Sequence record: PQ850605.1
DNA length: 64,000 bases
Reading direction: 5' to 3' (one strand)
DNA from: Escherichia phage HansTraber_Bas100
Made by a program: the position numbers and the translations under genes. The notes under the pieces were generated by a model. It saw only the letters and a list, made by a program, of their open reading frames with translations, was not told where the DNA came from and did no database searches. Shown here one piece after another: positions 1-63,257 of the stretch (within the stretch, counting starts at the first letter, position 1; every line of letters starts with the position of its first letter).

Positions 1-1428
1 ATGTACCAGTTGAATCCTGCTTTAAAAGAAGTCTGGAAGACAAAAGCGCGATACAAAGTAATATACGGCGGTCGTGCATCTTCCAAATCGCACGATGCCG
101 CTGGTTTTGCTATTTATTTGGCGGCAAACTTCAAATTAAAATTCCTTTGCGTTCGACAATTCCAGAACAAGATTTCTGAATCTGTATATACTCTATTAAA
201 AGATAAAATAGAGATTTCTGATTTTAAAGATGAGTTCAATTTATTAAAGAACTCTATCGAGCATAAAAGAACTAAATCTGAATTTCTATTTTACGGTATC
301 GCACGTAACGTTGATGAAATTAAATCAACGGAAGGTGTTGATGTTCTTTGGCTGGAAGAAGCGCACGCACTTACTGAAGAACAGTGGGACATTATTGAGC
401 CGACAATCCGTAAAGAGGGGTCAGAAATATGGATCATCTTTAACCCTGATGAAGAGGCCGATTTCGTCTACCAAAACTTTGTTATGCGACCGCCGAAGAA
501 TGCCATAGTTAAAAAGATAAACTGGCAAGACAACCCATTCTTGTCGCAAACAATGCTGGATGTTATTGCAGGCATGTACGAGCGCGACCCGAAAAAGGCA
601 GAGCACGTTTATGGCGGTGTGCCGAAGACTGGCGGCGATAAATCTGTAATCAACCGTGCATTCGTTAAGGCCGCTCTTAATCTCCACAAACACCCTACGC
701 TGGGCTGGAGTTTGTCAGGGTCTAACCGTATAGGCTTTGACGTAGCGGACGATGGCGACGACCTTAACGCCACTGCATTCGTTACAGGAAACGTATTGCG
801 CGGCATCAAGACGTGGGAAGGTCTGGAAGATGAATTGTTGAAATCGGCAAGCGGAGTTTGGAAAGATGCGCTTACATTTGGCGCTTCTATAACTTATGAC
901 GCCATCGGTGTCGGCGCTTTTGCTGGTTCAAAATTTGATGAACTAAACGAGTATGCAATACATGAAAATCCATCATTTCCAAGAATCGAATTTAATGCGT
1001 TCAACGCGCAAGGGTCTGTTGATGATCCTGATGACGTTTTTCTTGAGCTACCACACGTTGAAATACTCAATAAAGACCATTTCGCGAACATAAAAGCGCA
1101 AAAGTGGACTGAAATTGCAGAGAGATTCAGAAAGACATACGAATATGCAACTGGGCAAGCCGTATATCCGACTGATGAATTGATTTCAATCGACACCGAT
1201 GGTATACCGGAACTTGGGATTCCAGCTTGGACTACTGAAGAGATTGAGACGTTTCTTTTTGAGATGTCAGCGCCGCGCAAAGATACGTCTGTTCTTGGCA
1301 AGTTCAAAGTTGAATCCAAAAAGGATATGGCAAAGCGTGGAGTCAAATCACCTAACAAAGCGGACGCAGCAATCATGGCATTGATGAAACCAATTGTTGC
1401 AGCATCCGGCTTCTTCTCTAACCTTTAA
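1..1428 (+). CDS. terL: terminase large subunit
   Basis: 475-aa ORF starting at window base 1; N-terminal Walker A-like GGRASSKS, Walker B-like VLWLEEAH, C-terminal nuclease-like region. Confidence 0.85.
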   Translation: MYQLNPALKEVWKTKARYKVIYGGRASSKSHDAAGFAIYLAANFKLKFLCVRQFQNKISESVYTLLKDKIEISDFKDEFNLLKNSIEHKRTKSEFLFYGIARNVDEIKSTEGVDVLWLEEAHALTEEQWDIIEPTIRKEGSEIWIIFNPDEEADFVYQNFVMRPPKNAIVKKINWQDNPFLSQTMLDVIAGMYERDPKKAEHVYGGVPKTGGDKSVINRAFVKAALNLHKHPTLGWSLSGSNRIGFDVADDGDDLNATAFVTGNVLRGIKTWEGLEDELLKSASGVWKDALTFGASITYDAIGVGAFAGSKFDELNEYAIHENPSFPRIEFNAFNAQGSVDDPDDVFLELPHVEILNKDHFANIKAQKWTEIAERFRKTYEYATGQAVYPTDELISIDTDGIPELGIPAWTTEEIETFLFEMSAPRKDTSVLGKFKVESKKDMAKRGVKSPNKADAAIMALMKPIVAASGFFSNL

Positions 1429-6580: not shown

Positions 6581-6860
6581 TATACGTATAATGACGTATC
6601 ATACGTATCAAGTAAGTTATTGTTTTCAAAAGAATCTTACGGATGATACGGATGATACGCGTTGCCGCCGTACTATATAGGAATTCAAATAAATTAATTT
6701 AAAATTATATATCTAATTTAATTTTATTTTTTTTATAAACTCTTATATATGAAAAGTATCCGTATCATCCGTATCATCCGTAGCACACCAGTGATAGCGC
6801 GGCTTATACACCGATACGGATAAAAATACGCCTCATTTTATCCGTATCATCCGTATCACA
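6581..6860. repeat. iteron-like inverted repeats flanking an AT-rich core (element R1)
   Basis: CTTACGGATGATACGGATGATACG at about 6636-6659 and its reverse complement at about 6756-6783, further ACGTATCA / GATACGGATA copies, about 80-bp AT-rich core with TATATAGGAATTC. Confidence 0.65.
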
Positions 6861-58842: not shown

Positions 58843-59175
58843 TAAGCGTATCATGGCTGCAGGCCGCGCCGTTGCTGGATTCCTATTTTCAAAAGTGGTA
58901 CACCCTTACGTCATGATACGTCATGGTTTTCTATCCGTAAGAGTGTACAGCCCTTGCCGCGCCTGGCTTGTACATTAATCTTACGGATGATACGGATAAA
59001 ACTGAGCATCGTTATATATAGAATTCGAAAAATTAATTAACTCCATTTTAAAAACATTTATATTAATTTTTTTCATATCCTCATACTTATGTTAATTTAT
59101 ATATTTAACGTATCATCCGTAAGATATAAGTAAAAACAAAGACTTGCGGCAATACGGATGATACGTCATGATACG
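58843..59175. repeat. iteron-like inverted repeats flanking an AT-rich core (element R2, homologous to R1)
   Basis: ATCTTACGGATGATACGGAT (about 58978-58997) and reverse-complement ACGTATCATCCGTAAGAT (about 59108-59125), outer copies, core with TATATATAGAATTC. Confidence 0.65.
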
Positions 59176-59403
59176 CTTCAACCAGCCAGCAGCGGCTAAG
59201 TCATTGATTTGCATAACAAGCGGCGAAAGGGATGGATTTCTTTTATACGTATCAAACAGTACACCACGCACCACGGTCCGCTATTCATTCAGCACTATGA
59301 TTTATGTACTTTTACAGCCAATCTGAACATCAATCTGCACTTGAATATAATGTTCATTCATTGTATAATTCACACTATTAATTTGCACTATGGGATTTGC
59401 ACT

Positions 59404-59877
59404 ATGAGTCAAGATTATGTAGCAATGCCTGAAGACTTTGAAGACCCGCGATTTGCAGAGCATAATCAGGCATTATTCGATGAGTTCATTGACCTTGTTA
59501 TTCAGGGCCATGACATGCGCGCAGCTTTTGCACTAGTATTTGGCATGGAGGTTGCGACCGATAACTACACTGGCCAGCGAATCCTCTGCACGCAACGCAA
59601 TCCGTACTACAAGATGCGCTACAAAAAGCGTATGGAAGAGATGCCATTGAAGGAATTGTGGAGCGTAAAGAGTTCCATCCACAATTTAGTGAAGCTTGTG
59701 CGTGATCCAGAAGTCGCGGCGTCAGCCAAGCTTAATGCCATTCGTGAACTGAATATCATCTACGGCATCACGATGATTGATGAAAATGGCAATAGTAAAA
59801 TGGGCCGTTCCATGGACGATTTCTACAAGGATTTTGGAGAGGCAGCCAAAGAGGGTGAGCAATTCTCCCGCCACTAG
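59404..59877 (+). CDS. terminase small subunit-like DNA-binding protein (tentative)
   Basis: FDEFIDLVIQGHDMRAAFALVFG resembles HTH region of small terminases; weak RBS; ATG overlaps a copy of the 11-mer. Confidence 0.4.
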   Translation: MSQDYVAMPEDFEDPRFAEHNQALFDEFIDLVIQGHDMRAAFALVFGMEVATDNYTGQRILCTQRNPYYKMRYKKRMEEMPLKELWSVKSSIHNLVKLVRDPEVAASAKLNAIRELNIIYGITMIDENGNSKMGRSMDDFYKDFGEAAKEGEQFSRH

Positions 59878-59894
59878 CCAATTTGCACTATAAA

Positions 59895-59932
59895 ATGGCC
59901 CTAGAACACATTTTCTCCACTTCTAGGGCCAT
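59895..59932 (+). promoter_or_regulatory. perfect 12-bp-stem hairpin after terS-like gene
   Basis: ATGGCCCTAGAA - 14-nt loop - TTCTAGGGCCAT; no U-tract. Confidence 0.45.
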
Positions 59933-60305
59933 CGGTAATACGACGGGGAAGGTTACAACCATAAACGCGTTAGAAAGTGTATTATTATAAGTCATCTTTT
60001 AGTCACTTTACGTAACAATTTACGACCTTCCGCCGTCCAGTCGAACGACTCCACCAGCAGATTTGCACTATAACCTAAGACGATGCGTCCCTTCTCGTTA
60101 TCGACCCGCCAACAAGTCTCGAATAGCATTCGATTTGCACTATTAACTATCGCCGCGACGCGCGTTGGGTAAGCGCAATTTGCACTATGGTCATAAAGGG
60201 ATAAGGTGCGACCGCTTCCGATGGACAACGTAGCGATAAGAATAAGCGTATTCATAAGCCACCAATTTGCACTATGAAAAGCGACCCCGAAGGGCCGCCA
60301 TTCGA

Positions 60306-60932
60306 TTAGATAATCTGGAATGTGTAGGACTTGTTGCCGAACTCGAAGTTCAAGCGTCCAGCTTCCTTAAGCTTCATGCGGAAGCGAATGTGCTTGCTAT
60401 CCGGTAATCCCAGCGCGGCGAACGCTACGCGGACCGATTTGAACTCGCCTACACCCTCGACCATGACACCGTTACGGGTGAGACGCTTTTGCGCCACTTC
60501 CTTATTATCCCAGCTTTTTGCAATACCTTCGCTATTCGAACGGCGATGGGAAGGAGTTCCATTTTGCACTACGCAATTTGCACTATCGTTTAAACCGCTC
60601 TTAACGAAGGCTTCATACTCTTCGTCGGTCATCGCGTCGAGTTCTTCCTGGGTCGGCTCGGCCTTTTTAACGACCGCACGCGCCTTATGCGTTTTTACAT
60701 CGCTGGGCACTTCCTCGCGCGACTTCGCGTCTGGGATGGGCGACTCGTTGGACGGCTCATCGAGCGCGTTTAAGGACTCGATTAACGCTATTACGCGAGT
60801 CTCGGCGGTCCGGCGGTCCGCAAATTTTTTGATCGGCTTCGAACCGGAATTTGCATTGTAAAATGCAACGAGGTCGGCGGTCTTAGTTGCGATAACGTCG
60901 CCGCTAGTCGAGAAACGATTTAAGCTAACCAT
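60306..60932 (-). CDS. hypothetical protein (208 aa)
   Basis: AGGAG RBS; coding region contains tandem copies of the 11-mer (reverse strand) encoding SANCVVQN. Confidence 0.55.
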   Translation of the reverse strand: MVSLNRFSTSGDVIATKTADLVAFYNANSGSKPIKKFADRRTAETRVIALIESLNALDEPSNESPIPDAKSREEVPSDVKTHKARAVVKKAEPTQEELDAMTDEEYEAFVKSGLNDSANCVVQNGTPSHRRSNSEGIAKSWDNKEVAQKRLTRNGVMVEGVGEFKSVRVAFAALGLPDSKHIRFRMKLKEAGRLNFEFGNKSYTFQII

Positions 60933-61012
60933 AATGAACTCCTATTTGTTAGGGCGCTAGGCGCGAAAGAATTTTATTAAAGCGCCGCGCACGACGCTCT
61001 AAAAATCCTCTC

Positions 61013-61297
61013 TTACGCTTCGACGAGGGAGAAGGTCTCAAATTCTTCTTCGCCCATAACGAGTAAGATGTTACCGATTTCGACCGCTTCGAAGAAGTAT
61101 CCGTTAACGTTTACTTCGAAGGCTTCGCGGTCCGATTCCGGTAACGCCGCGTAAAGTTTAAAAGCCTCGGCGACCGTTACCCCACCCGCCTCGATAGTTT
61201 GGTCTACGTTCGCGGCGTAGACTTCGGATAAAATTTGTTTTACGCCGTAGTTCTCGACGATAGCGTTACGAATAGAAGAAACGTTAAGAATAGCCAT
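61013..61297 (-). CDS. small acidic protein, paralog A (94 aa)
   Basis: AGGAG RBS 6 nt upstream; promoter and leader homologous to those of paralog C in inverted orientation. Confidence 0.55.
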   Translation of the reverse strand: MAILNVSSIRNAIVENYGVKQILSEVYAANVDQTIEAGGVTVAEAFKLYAALPESDREAFEVNVNGYFFEAVEIGNILLVMGEEEFETFSLVEA

Positions 61298-61321
61298 TTT
61301 AAACTCCTAGTTGGGAGAGGC

Positions 61322-61342
61322 GTTAACGACCTATTCGTTAAC
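61322..61342 (-). promoter_or_regulatory. 5' leader hairpin of paralog A
   Basis: GTTAACGA-loop-TCGTTAAC; same position as hairpin in paralog C leader with two compensatory base-pair changes. Confidence 0.5.
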
Positions 61343-61365
61343 TCATCCCGTCCCGATATGAGTAC

Positions 61366-61393
61366 ATTATAATATAGTGTAGAAAAAAGTAAA
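61366..61393 (-). promoter_or_regulatory. promoter of paralog A (TTTACT-16 bp-TATAAT)
   Basis: hexamers on - strand; spacer contains CTACACT. Confidence 0.45.
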
Positions 61394-61437
61394 GCACTTT
61401 TTCGATAAAAATGAGATAAATTATTTTATCTTTTTTC

Positions 61438-61465
61438 TTTACTTCTTCGTACACTCGCGTATACT
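61438..61465 (+). promoter_or_regulatory. promoter of paralog B (TTTACT-16 bp-TATACT)
   Basis: conserved spacer TCTTCGTACACT shared with paralog C promoter. Confidence 0.45.
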
Positions 61466-61521
61466 TGTTTATATCGAGACGGGCGATGGCCCTTCCTTCT
61501 ACTAGCATCGGGAGTTTTATT

Positions 61522-61824
61522 ATGACTACTTTAATCTCTTCTATCCTTACTTACGACGAAGACCGTTTAACCGTTCGTTCTCTTATCGCCGCCGTTAACG
61601 CGGAACTAGAATCCACCATCATTAAGGTCCGCGCGGTCGCTTTCGTCGGGCTTTCCTTCGACGATATGAAATACGCCGAACGTAGCGCCATCCGCTTCGC
61701 GAAGACCGACGACGAAGCCGTTACCCTTATCGAGACGGTTACGCCTCACGGCGAAGCGTTAATTATCGTCGAGTATATCGACGTAGAAGGCGATAAAGCT
61801 TATAAACATTTTATCGCAAAATAA
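61522..61824 (+). CDS. small acidic protein, divergent paralog B (100 aa)
   Basis: ATG 61522 with GGGAG RBS; track start 61465 overlaps the -10 and is rejected. Confidence 0.5.
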   Translation: MTTLISSILTYDEDRLTVRSLIAAVNAELESTIIKVRAVAFVGLSFDDMKYAERSAIRFAKTDDEAVTLIETVTPHGEALIIVEYIDVEGDKAYKHFIAK

Positions 61825-61834
61825 CGAAAAGTGC

Positions 61835-61863
61835 TTTACTTCTTCGTACACTAAGACTATAAT
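61835..61863 (+). promoter_or_regulatory. promoter of paralog C (TTTACT-17 bp-TATAAT)
   Basis: hexamers plus conserved spacer TCTTCGTACACT. Confidence 0.5.
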
Positions 61864-61885
61864 GTTTTATATCGAGAGGGGATGA

Positions 61886-61906
61886 GGTAGCGAATAGGTC
61901 GCTACC
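61886..61906 (+). promoter_or_regulatory. 5' leader hairpin of paralog C
   Basis: GGTAGCGA-atagg-TCGCTACC perfect 8-bp stem about 25 nt upstream of ATG. Confidence 0.5.
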
Positions 61907-61930
61907 CGCCCGACCAACTAGGAGATTATT

Positions 61931-62221
61931 ATGATTACTTTAGCCGCTATCCGTTCCGCTCGCGTCGAGACTTCCGAAAACTCTAACGTATTTGGCGAGA
62001 CTTTAGAGAGCGTTTATCTCTCTAACGTCGACGCGACTATCGAGTCTATTTATGAGCCGATCAACTTCCTCGACCTTTACAAGTATCGCGACGAGGACAT
62101 CGTATCGTCCCGCGTAACGATCAACGGCTTCGTTTATACGATTACCGAAATCGGCGGCGAATATATCGCGGTCCCGCAACTCGGCGGCGAAGTAACTTAT
62201 TTTAAAATCGTCTCCTTATAA
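61931..62221 (+). CDS. small acidic protein, paralog C (96 aa)
   Basis: AGGAG RBS; shares IR.A.VE, VY..NVD.TIE and NG(F/Y)..EIG motifs with paralog A. Confidence 0.55.
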   Translation: MITLAAIRSARVETSENSNVFGETLESVYLSNVDATIESIYEPINFLDLYKYRDEDIVSSRVTINGFVYTITEIGGEYIAVPQLGGEVTYFKIVSL

Positions 62222-62241
62222 TACCCTTCCGTTACTAATAG

Positions 62242-62266
62242 GCCGCGCTTAGTCGCGGCTTTTCTT
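62242..62266 (+). terminator. intrinsic terminator after paralog C
   Basis: GCCGCG-cttagt-CGCGGC stem followed by TTTTCTT. Confidence 0.5.
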
Positions 62267-62385
62267 CGTCCCTATCTCGTTGCGCTCCTACGCGAAAACT
62301 CCTTTATCCTTCCCTTCGTCGTCGCATAATCTTCGTCGGTATGCGCCTTAGTTCGCATAACAGGTATTACGTTAAATGGAGAACA

Positions 62386-62459
62386 TCGCGTAAGTCCTTG
62401 TTTTATATAGACACCTATATCGGACCGTTAGGGCGGGTCGCGTAAGTCGTTGTTTTATA
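62386..62459 (+). repeat. two direct copies of a 22-bp repeat, 52-bp period
   Basis: TCGCGTAAGTCCTTGTTTTATA at 62386 and TCGCGTAAGTCGTTGTTTTATA at 62438. Confidence 0.6.
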
Positions 62460-62690
62460 AAGGCGCAAAACTTTCCCTTCGTTCCGAACTAAAACGAGAA
62501 ATATGCGGACCCTTCGCTCGAAAATAGTACGCATGCGAAATTACCGACATCTAGAATAATCCCCATCGATATTATCCTACGCGCAACCATTCGCTTTCGA
62601 ATTGTAACGCTGGAAACTGTAACGGCGATTGATTATTGCGTTCGTGTGGTTTTTAGGGCATGGGTCTTTTGGTGCGTTTTGCTACTTGAT

Positions 62691-62804
62691 GGAATTTGCA
62701 GTACACTAATCAAAATACGACACATTTGGTCCACTAACTTTTCAAAGAAAAAGTCCTAGACAGTACCGTACTATTTTGTATCCACAGGAAATTTGCAGTA
62801 CACT
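62691..62804 (+). repeat. two copies of GGAA(A)TTTGCAGTACACT
   Basis: copies at about 62691 and 62787; shares ATTTGCA and CACT with the 11-mer and GTACACT with island promoter spacers. Confidence 0.55.
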
Positions 62805-62876
62805 CCTGCGCGCGGCAGGCAAAATAAAGGGCCGCACTAAGCGACCCACGATTCACGGTTAAATCAACAACACCCA

Positions 62877-63257
62877 CTATTCACTCTTATGGGCATCACC
62901 AAATCCATCAGCAATCTGGCTGATCAACGACTCAATGGACACAGTTTTACCAATTGATCGAGCGGTTATGGCGAGCATATTATCAATCAAACCGTGATTA
63001 ACACAATACTCTGGAGATTTAGAATCATCTTCAGAACAACCAAAAAGCTGGTCGCGCAGACTTTCAAGAGAACGCTCAATATTTTCCAACTTCTCTTCTA
63101 AATCGGATTGGCGACGTAAAACCCATGTCAAGTCACGGTTGCCAACTTCCAATCCATCAGAATAGCAAGGTGGAGCGTCAATTTTGATGCTGGAACCAAA
63201 AGCAGTGCCGCTGCCTTTAGTATAAGTATGGCTCATAGAATCATTTTTATTTGACAT
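62877..63257 (-). CDS. hypothetical protein (126 aa)
   Basis: ATG 63257 with AAAGG RBS preferred over track TTG 63323, which would run through a terminator hairpin. Confidence 0.5.
   Translation of the reverse strand: MSNKNDSMSHTYTKGSGTAFGSSIKIDAPPCYSDGLEVGNRDLTWVLRRQSDLEEKLENIERSLESLRDQLFGCSEDDSKSPEYCVNHGLIDNMLAITARSIGKTVSIESLISQIADGFGDAHKSE

Follow-up and report, generated by a model that had tools for sequence, protein, structure and literature searches.

Conserved non-coding DNA at the inner boundary of the terminal repeat of a Wifcevirus-like Escherichia phage: a putative genome-end-forming region

Background

In phage lambda, whose packaging sites are cosQ, cosN and cosB, the cut that terminates packaging needs elements on both sides of it, and one of these elements is not included in the genome whose packaging ends there. 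Phages T7 and T3 have fixed ends with a direct terminal repeat; both boundaries of the repeat are cut and the repeat is duplicated, short repeat arrays flank it, one end has been proposed to pass through a hairpin intermediate, and in T7 concatemer processing involves origin and promoter elements located near the ends. To our knowledge, boundary cutting and repeat duplication in phages with long terminal repeats are poorly understood outside T7. The concatemer junctions and packaging of T7 and T3 were reportedly treated by Dunn and Studier in 1983, Chung and Hinkle in 1990, and Fujisawa and Morita in 1997. Here we describe a gap between the genes of Escherichia phage HansTraber_Bas100 (PQ850605.1), at positions 62222-62876 of a stretch of 64,000 nucleotides that we call the window and to which coordinates refer unless another locus is named. 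The gap contains the inner boundary of a long direct terminal repeat (DTR), and probably the signals by which that end of the genome is formed.

The closest functional analogue is Repeat Region 3 of phage T5, a siphovirus that is unrelated in sequence to the window phage, in which conserved untranslated repeats and palindromes straddle the inner end of a long terminal repeat carrying the first-expressed genes. The region is untranslated, repeat-rich and more conserved than the adjacent open reading frames (ORFs), and it lies mostly inside the terminal repeat but overruns it by 270 bp into unique DNA (bioRxiv 10.1101/866236). EcoRI sites in the T5 DNA that enters first are cleaved, while those elsewhere in the genome are not (bioRxiv 10.1101/866236). 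The genus Wifcevirus comprises myoviruses of E. coli and Shigella with genomes of 66-72 kb, distantly related to the PB1-like phages of Pseudomonas (PMC11990801), and its published terminal repeats measure ~3.7 kb (Korf 2019, PMC6563267) and 3,673 bp (D'Souza 2019, PMC6753283). What we report is mainly explained by this known Wifcevirus terminal repeat; the new elements are a boundary element shared across genera, the motifs that bracket it and a compositional anomaly that adjoins it.

Results

By its database matches, the window phage is an E. coli myophage of Wifcevirus type. Over 2.6 kb around the gap it aligns at 90-96% identity to 28 Wifcevirus records, with no other match in the phage collection; the matches of a permissive ("distant") blastn search against phages were likewise limited to 28 Wifcevirus records, and E. 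coli genomes gave no match. An earlier note on this DNA, made from the letters without database searches, had taken it for a phage genome, and the Wifcevirus match bears this out.

The right edge of the DTR falls inside the gap. Five relatives have an explicit DTR: both copies are deposited for WFC, WFH, SP13 and Ro157lw, and the repeat of Mansfield is annotated from PhageTerm. The left end corresponds to window position 59045 in all five records (ATTTTAAAAAC...), and the right end to 62669 in four of them (WFH, Mansfield, SP13 and Ro157lw). Through these relatives, and by homology, the window DTR has the two properties expected of such a repeat, namely the same sequence at both ends and an end at a fixed, reproducible nucleotide. 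The space between the two terminators of the gap is divided by this boundary into ~410 nt inside the DTR and ~160 nt outside. The earlier note had missed this boundary.

Both edges of the gap are closed by terminators (Table 1). The flanking genes end at the stop codon of a 96-aa plus-strand gene (62221) and at that of a minus-strand gene (62877). The plus-strand terminator closes the early genes 61522-62221, is invariant in 19 sequences and is annotated in the Mansfield, WFC and WFH records; the minus-strand terminator closes the gene cluster running from 63984 down to 62877 and is annotated in WFC and WFH. Each sits directly after the last gene of its own unit and qualifies as an intrinsic (Rho-independent) terminator. 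With terminators at both edges, two convergent transcription units therefore meet in the gap. A terminator at the start of the region had been noticed before, and it is indeed present at 62240-62261, while the one that faces it at 62847-62829 had been overlooked. The palindrome pointed out at the same time is confirmed at 62805-62819; its loop is 3 nt long (CCTGCGCGGCAGG) in most relatives.

Conservation of the gap was measured in an alignment of 18 relatives plus the window. Between the terminators, pairwise identity averages 0.958 and 83% of sites are invariant; for comparison, codon positions 1-2 of the best-conserved neighbouring genes reach 0.95-0.97, and third positions of the neighbouring genes 0.77-0.88. 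The most invariant part, 62611-62700, surrounds the DTR end and has 91% invariant sites. Length is nearly constant as well, the distance from anchor to anchor being 757-766 nt in most of the 13 relatives without an extra gene. Mansfield has 794 nt between the anchors, with an expansion of a CCCACGA microsatellite to six units near 62850, and Bas99 and SP13 have small duplications near the same position. An extra 69-aa gene stands before the terminator (insertion point 62205) in Eco4M-7, SP13, ECML-117, Ro157lw and FEC19. As judged from the aligned relatives, the gap is under purifying selection. The earlier proposal of a degenerate gene remnant is contradicted by the identity of the gap when set against the third codon positions of its neighbours, and we have excluded a decaying gene on the ground of this conservation.

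The stretch is also truly non-coding. The longest ORF that overlaps it has 47 aa (62734..62877, minus strand), in keeping with the earlier statement that no ORF of at least 60 aa is present. Twelve small ORFs (25-47 aa) have ratios of synonymous to non-synonymous substitutions from 1:11 to 6:7, and seven of the twelve gain or lose stop codons among the relatives; none has a coding substitution pattern. The apparent intactness of some of them arises because 83% of the sites never vary. In the curated BASEL annotation the same gap is left empty.

Two pairs of direct repeats that the earlier note had pointed out are real and conserved in relatives; they lie at 62386/62438 and 62693/62790. The 22-mer TCGCGTAAGTCSTTGTTTTATA of the first pair has two exact occurrences, and none of 100 shuffles contained any match; it extends to a 25-nt pair, R1, with 92% identity and a spacing of 52 nt. 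The R1 core CGYAAGTCNTTGTTTT has three exact sites in the 64 kb. Two are the direct copies, 213-280 nt inside the right DTR end, and the third is an inverted copy (59133-59148) ~90 nt inside the left DTR end; one further site with 2 mismatches lies at 6611, and four matches were reached in 0 of 100 shuffles. All relatives whose sequence covers both ends have this triple, and the spacing from R1a to R1b is constantly 52 nt. The second pair, R3, is an exact 15-mer (AATTTGCAGTACACT). Its 18-nt pattern, allowing up to 3 mismatches, has two matches, a number that one of 100 shuffles also reached. The five copies of GTACACT in the 64 kb are all in or beside the DTR: two in the spacers of early promoters (61449 and 61846), one each in R3a and R3b, and an inverted one ~100 nt outside the left boundary.

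Other motifs are centred on the end itself. The two arms of an 11-nt inverted repeat bracket it and are invariant in the alignment; the single-stranded DNA fold around the end is no more stable than that of shuffles (z = 0.58). A G/T-rich block crosses the end, with G+T fractions of 0.83 and 0.73 in two 30-nt bins, and just 0.1% of 90-nt windows match the skew of 62611-62700. When the two ends of the DTR were compared within the window, the R1 core was the only significant match. The conservation of repeats, palindrome and terminator in the 18 aligned relatives indicates that they are more than chance. The GGAA(A)TTTGCAGTACACT motifs of the earlier note were there called promoter-like, which does not hold, as neither copy has a -10 hexamer at a workable distance. 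R3 and R1 were both considered as sigma-70 promoters and rejected, there being no -10 hexamer 16-18 nt from the candidate -35. The word AACCATTCGCTTTCGAAT occurs twice in all relatives, at a distance of ~46 nt, as seen in the alignment and, for six further relatives, in split BLAST alignments; the window has one. The corresponding 45-nt deletion (~62584/62585), between two AATCATTCGCTTTCGAAT copies, is private to the window phage and is shared by none of the 24 relatives examined.

Table 1. Positions of the features in and around the gap and of the terminase genes
Feature	Position	Strand	Remarks
Direct terminal repeat (DTR), ~3.6 kb	59045..62669		Right edge inside gap
Predicted physical right end of virion DNA	62669..62670		...GGGCATGGGTCTTT / TGGTGCG...; equals inner boundary of left DTR copy
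Intrinsic terminator	62240..62271 (stem 62240-62261)	+	8-bp stem, 6 G-C pairs, T-run after
R1a, 25-nt direct repeat, copy 1	62386..62410	+	Core CGTAAGTCCTTGTTTT
R1b, 25-nt direct repeat, copy 2	62438..62462	+	
11-nt perfect inverted repeat	62521..62531 and 62767-62777		Arms AAAATAGTACG / CGTACTATTTT bracket DTR end
Single AACCATTCGCTTTCGAAT copy	62585..62602	+	
G/T-rich block	62640..62699	+	On strand whose 3' end forms terminus; spans DTR end
End-flanking element	62670..62709	+	TGGTGCG-N12-ATGGA-N7-GTACACTAA; immediately outside DTR; includes R3a
R3a, first "promoter-like" motif	62693-62707		Within end-flanking element
R3b, second exact AATTTGCAGTACACT copy	62790..62804	+	
Hairpin palindrome	62805..62819		CCTGCGCGCGGCAGG = CCTGC-GCGCG-GCAGG; adjoins minus-strand terminator
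Intrinsic terminator	62821..62847 (hairpin 62847-62829)	-	7-bp stem, 6 G-C pairs, then TTTATTTT
TerL (large terminase)	1-1428		PF04466, 3.1e-37; portal, protease and capsid genes come next
TerS (small terminase), 157 aa	59404-59877		Encoded inside DTR; matches E217 TerS 7UXE, E = 9e-33

A counterpart of the boundary is found in another genus. A tblastn search with the window TerS identified Serratia phage MyoSmar (35% identity), to which blastn finds no DNA similarity and for which PhageTerm gives a repeat of 3,559 bp. Seen in window orientation, MyoSmar has the layout of the window: 387 nt separate its TerS from one repeat boundary, the other boundary is crossed by 481 nt without an ORF, of which 345 nt belong to the repeat and 136 nt lie beyond it, and the 3'-ending strand at that end is G/T-rich (0.67-0.87 over the last ~120 nt). 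The local alignment of 62618-62709 with MyoSmar has a score of 46, compared with 23.8 +/- 3.4 and a maximum of 39 in 300 shuffles, and the PhageTerm boundary of MyoSmar and 62669/62670, which were mapped independently of each other, fall in the same alignment column. The 40 nt outside the end align without gaps and are identical at 27 of 40 positions by our count (window TGGTGCGTTTTGCTACTTGATGGAATTTGCAGTACACTAA; MyoSmar TGGTGCGATTTCACACAAAATGGATTGGCACGTACACTAA). As in the window, TGGTGCG-N12-ATGGA-N7-GTACACTAA stands immediately outside the end, and a second CGTACACT lies ~60 nt outside it, as R3b does. On this alignment, conservation across genera extends over ~90 nt around the boundary.

The Myosmarvirus boundary is the sole homologous relative that our searches found outside Wifcevirus. 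A degenerate pattern of the end element matched only WFC and MyoSmar in IMG/VR, where a search with a neighbouring protein yielded four loci, none from another genus. When metagenomes were scanned with a 29-mer of the gap, five loci appeared, all of them ~95% identical; the terminus was at the edge of none of four contig fragments. The two genera also differ. Just ~90 nt can be aligned, the early genes of Myosmarvirus are transcribed away from the end whereas those of the window run toward it, and Myosmarvirus has a GTACACT copy just inside the TerS-proximal end, where the window has none. In the first 4.2 kb of MyoSmar neither ATGATACG nor ATTTGCACTAT is present; both are repeated words of the window that we describe below.

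Function of the gap

We consider it probable that the gap consists of two convergent terminators and, between them, a cis-acting region at the inner boundary of the DTR that serves to form the genome end. Its conserved sequence most likely works as a DNA signal, rather than as a gene or a small RNA. The operator array that the earlier note had listed among its candidates comes close to this, in that the repeats are real and an array of protein-binding sites is near the best reading; the binding itself is putative. We propose that the terminase, made up of TerL and the DTR-encoded TerS, or an associated nickase would recognise the TGGTGCG...GTACACTAA element together with the G/T-rich block and would cut at 62669/62670 on finishing the filling of a head from the concatemer. 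The recognition element would then remain outside the filled head. The R1 sites, inverted with respect to each other near both DTR ends, and the R3 sites outside could be binding sites that mark or join the two boundaries for duplication of the DTR; that duplication of a repeat needs two cuts is taken over from T7. Packaging may start at the TerS-proximal end, as hinted by the TerS gene lying ~360 nt inside that end, in which case the right end would be packaged last and would enter the host first, bringing in the early genes. The end packaged last is usually ejected first, as in lambda and SPP1.

The proposal combines features of known systems. Like T7 and T3, the window has fixed ends, a direct terminal repeat and short repeats that flank it, but the T7 repeat is 160 bp long and non-coding whereas the window DTR has 3.6 kb and eight genes, among them TerS; the window shows no similarity to T7 or T3 in sequence, and the single-stranded fold of the window end does not rise above shuffles. 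Recognition elements on both sides of the termination cut would be shared with lambda cos. Lambda, in contrast, has cohesive ends and no terminal repeat, and its enzyme stays on the start of the next genome, which in the window lies 3.6 kb upstream of the cut. The present analysis ties one Wifcevirus DTR boundary to a short cross-genus element and names a small set of bracketing motifs, for whose mutation the in-vitro assembly and reboot system already available for vB_Eco4M-7 (PMC11074155) could be used. True positions of genome ends are also useful to annotators and to genome-rebooting projects.

Several points weigh against the proposal. The end at 62669/62670 is placed in the window phage by homology, and the motifs are putative as binding or cleavage sites. 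The right DTR end of WFC maps to 62750, 81 nt further on than the others, which makes the exact cut uncertain, and for a second Myosmarvirus, MTx, PhageTerm places the boundary 14 nt upstream of TGGTGCG. Because of the latter offset, the cut as positioned by these alignments is known to within ~15 nt. At the TerS-proximal end, the comparison of the window with MyoSmar gave a score of 36 against 29.8 +/- 4 in shuffles, which is not significant, and this end shares no element with the right DTR end apart from the R1 core. The relatives are diverged by 5-10%, which limits the power of the conservation and covariation tests. The TerS of E217 did not bind DNA appreciably in vitro (PMC9611059), and related Pbunaviruses may package by headful (PMC12390725). 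The discordance of deposited ends extends beyond WFC and MTx (locus L043, position 3566, 14 nt before the MyoSmar position), since the TerS-proximal ends deposited for MTx and MyoSmar differ as well; it is due either to method noise or to real heterogeneity of the ends.

The layout of the gap raises the question of whether it is instead an injection stop like that of T5, the early-gene end entering first and an untranslated block holding entry until early proteins are made. The gap resembles T5 Repeat Region 3 in layout, ~410 nt inside and ~160 nt outside the DTR, without the paired DnaA boxes, the proposed signal and defining feature of the T5 region. Small genes behind consensus sigma-70 promoters in the DTR, and a 2.6-kb island depleted in TG/CA that abuts the right end in two genera, would suit such a role, as DNA that enters first could be selected to avoid targets by analogy with the EcoRI sites of T5. 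However, the T5 block is 1.2 kb long, is far richer in repeat families and has eight DnaA boxes (TTWTNCACA) paired in inverted-repeat modules, whereas the gap has no exact box, only one with 1 mismatch at 62778 that varies among relatives. The DTR proteins are without a Pfam match, although no search aimed at homology to T5 A1/A2 was made, and both the first-entering end and a two-step entry would be conjectural for Wifcevirus. We therefore regard a T5-like leader as unlikely. A bolder form of it, which we offer as speculation and would not expect to be correct, is that the gap is a checkpoint that enters first and pauses while early genes are expressed from the ~2.6-kb island (~2 kb in Myosmarvirus), from which words containing CAG/CTG or TGA would have been removed owing to exposure to host nucleases before protection; T5-style two-step infection would then have arisen independently in two genera of enterobacterial myoviruses.

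Readings in which the gap encodes a product or initiates replication are less probable than formation of the genome end by a DNA signal. Strong conservation without coding would suit one or more unstructured small or antisense RNAs, and the sole promoter-like site in the gap, a weak one on the minus strand (62600-62571, TCGAAA-18-GATAAT, 9/12), keeps its spacing in relatives. But none of 4227 Rfam models matched in the gap at E<=1, minimum free energy z-scores in 120-nt windows on both strands range from -1.5 to +1.3 with no excess stability, and the gap interior has no terminator and no promoter-terminator pair. RNAalifold on 150-nt windows found 0-1 double-sided changes against 4-10 broken cells and thus no covariation, at a power limited by low divergence; and the block conserved across genera coincides exactly with the mapped DNA end. 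Such RNAs are accordingly quite unlikely here, small non-coding RNAs having been among the candidates of the earlier note; its remark that no tRNA-like arm was seen by eye agrees with ARAGORN, which found no tRNA or tmRNA in the gap. The phasing of the repeat pairs with the helix (52 nt), the inverted repeat that brackets the end and the high conservation might also point to a replication origin, or a secondary one, at the DTR boundary. The gap has no cluster of DnaA boxes, no IHF consensus, no AT-rich unwinding block (GC 0.39-0.47) and no iteron array beyond the repeat pairs, which leaves an origin very improbable. Least of all do we expect unrecognised, very small protein genes: automatic annotation placed four ORFs of 30-46 aa in the gap in kaset and two in Mansfield, and several ORFs are intact in most relatives, but their substitution ratios, the stop codons gained in seven of twelve and the invariant sites that account for their intactness stand against it, and curated annotations have no gene there.

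Other features of the terminal repeat

A 2.6-kb island of unusual composition (~59990-62610) comprises the small DTR genes of both strands, located downstream of TerS, as well as the part of the gap internal to the DTR. The observed/expected ratio for TG/CA is 0.44 in the island and 1.17 in the rest of the genome; for CG the two values are 1.95 and 1.10, and for TA 1.16 and 0.67. TG/CA falls to 0.2-0.3 in the core of the island; CTG/CAG in the island is at 0.13 of expectation. The dinucleotide values are equal in coding and non-coding parts, and the island stops sharply ~60 nt before the DTR end. Islands lie beside the same end in MyoSmar (locus L037, 155-1950; TG/CA 0.14-0.41) and in MTx (L043, 1800-3300; TG/CA 0.14-0.30); none was seen around TerS in BcepF1, Pa193 or Aeromonas Gekk3-15. 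This TG/CA-depleted module is an unexplained compositional signal in two genera and may report what first-entering DNA must avoid.

Three near-consensus sigma-70 promoters lie inside the DTR (61366-61393 on the minus strand, 61438-61465 and 61835-61863 on the plus strand). They consist of TTTACT, a spacer of 16-17 nt and TATAAT or TATACT, and drive divergent units of small genes; both plus-strand promoters have GTACACT in the spacer. The same form of promoter, TTTACT-17-TATAAT, is found in MyoSmar. Apart from the absence of Pfam matches, two of the DTR-encoded proteins have PHROG matches, both to families of unknown function.

The TerS gene, ~360 nt from the left DTR end, is ~58 kb from the TerL gene in window coordinates. 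Since it lies inside the DTR, it would be present in two copies in virion DNA. In MyoSmar and MTx, TerS is likewise placed inside the terminal repeat, and in E217, too, the TerS gene is distant from that of the large subunit (PMC9611059). The word ATTTGCACTAT has eight exact plus-strand copies, which are confined to a 1.2-kb segment (59381-60586), with none elsewhere in the 64 kb. This array extends over the start codon and the rest of the TerS gene as well as over two genes on the minus strand, and every relative that covers that part of the DTR has 5-8 copies in the same orientation; it is possibly a terminase-binding array. One of its copies abuts a Chi site (GCTGGTGG) at 60051-60058 on the minus strand, ~1 kb inward of the left end. 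RecBCD entering from the left end would recognise this site according to the orientation rule for Chi. There is no Chi site near the gap.

Clusters of ATGATACG, with six copies each, flank two paralogous AT-rich cores at 58847-59175 and 6595-6850. One core contains the left physical end (59045) and lies upstream of TerS, the other is upstream of the prohead protease and capsid genes. In each of these regions an R1-like word is followed at a fixed distance by ATCTTACGGATGATACG. The two regions look like a shared regulatory module, perhaps a late promoter.

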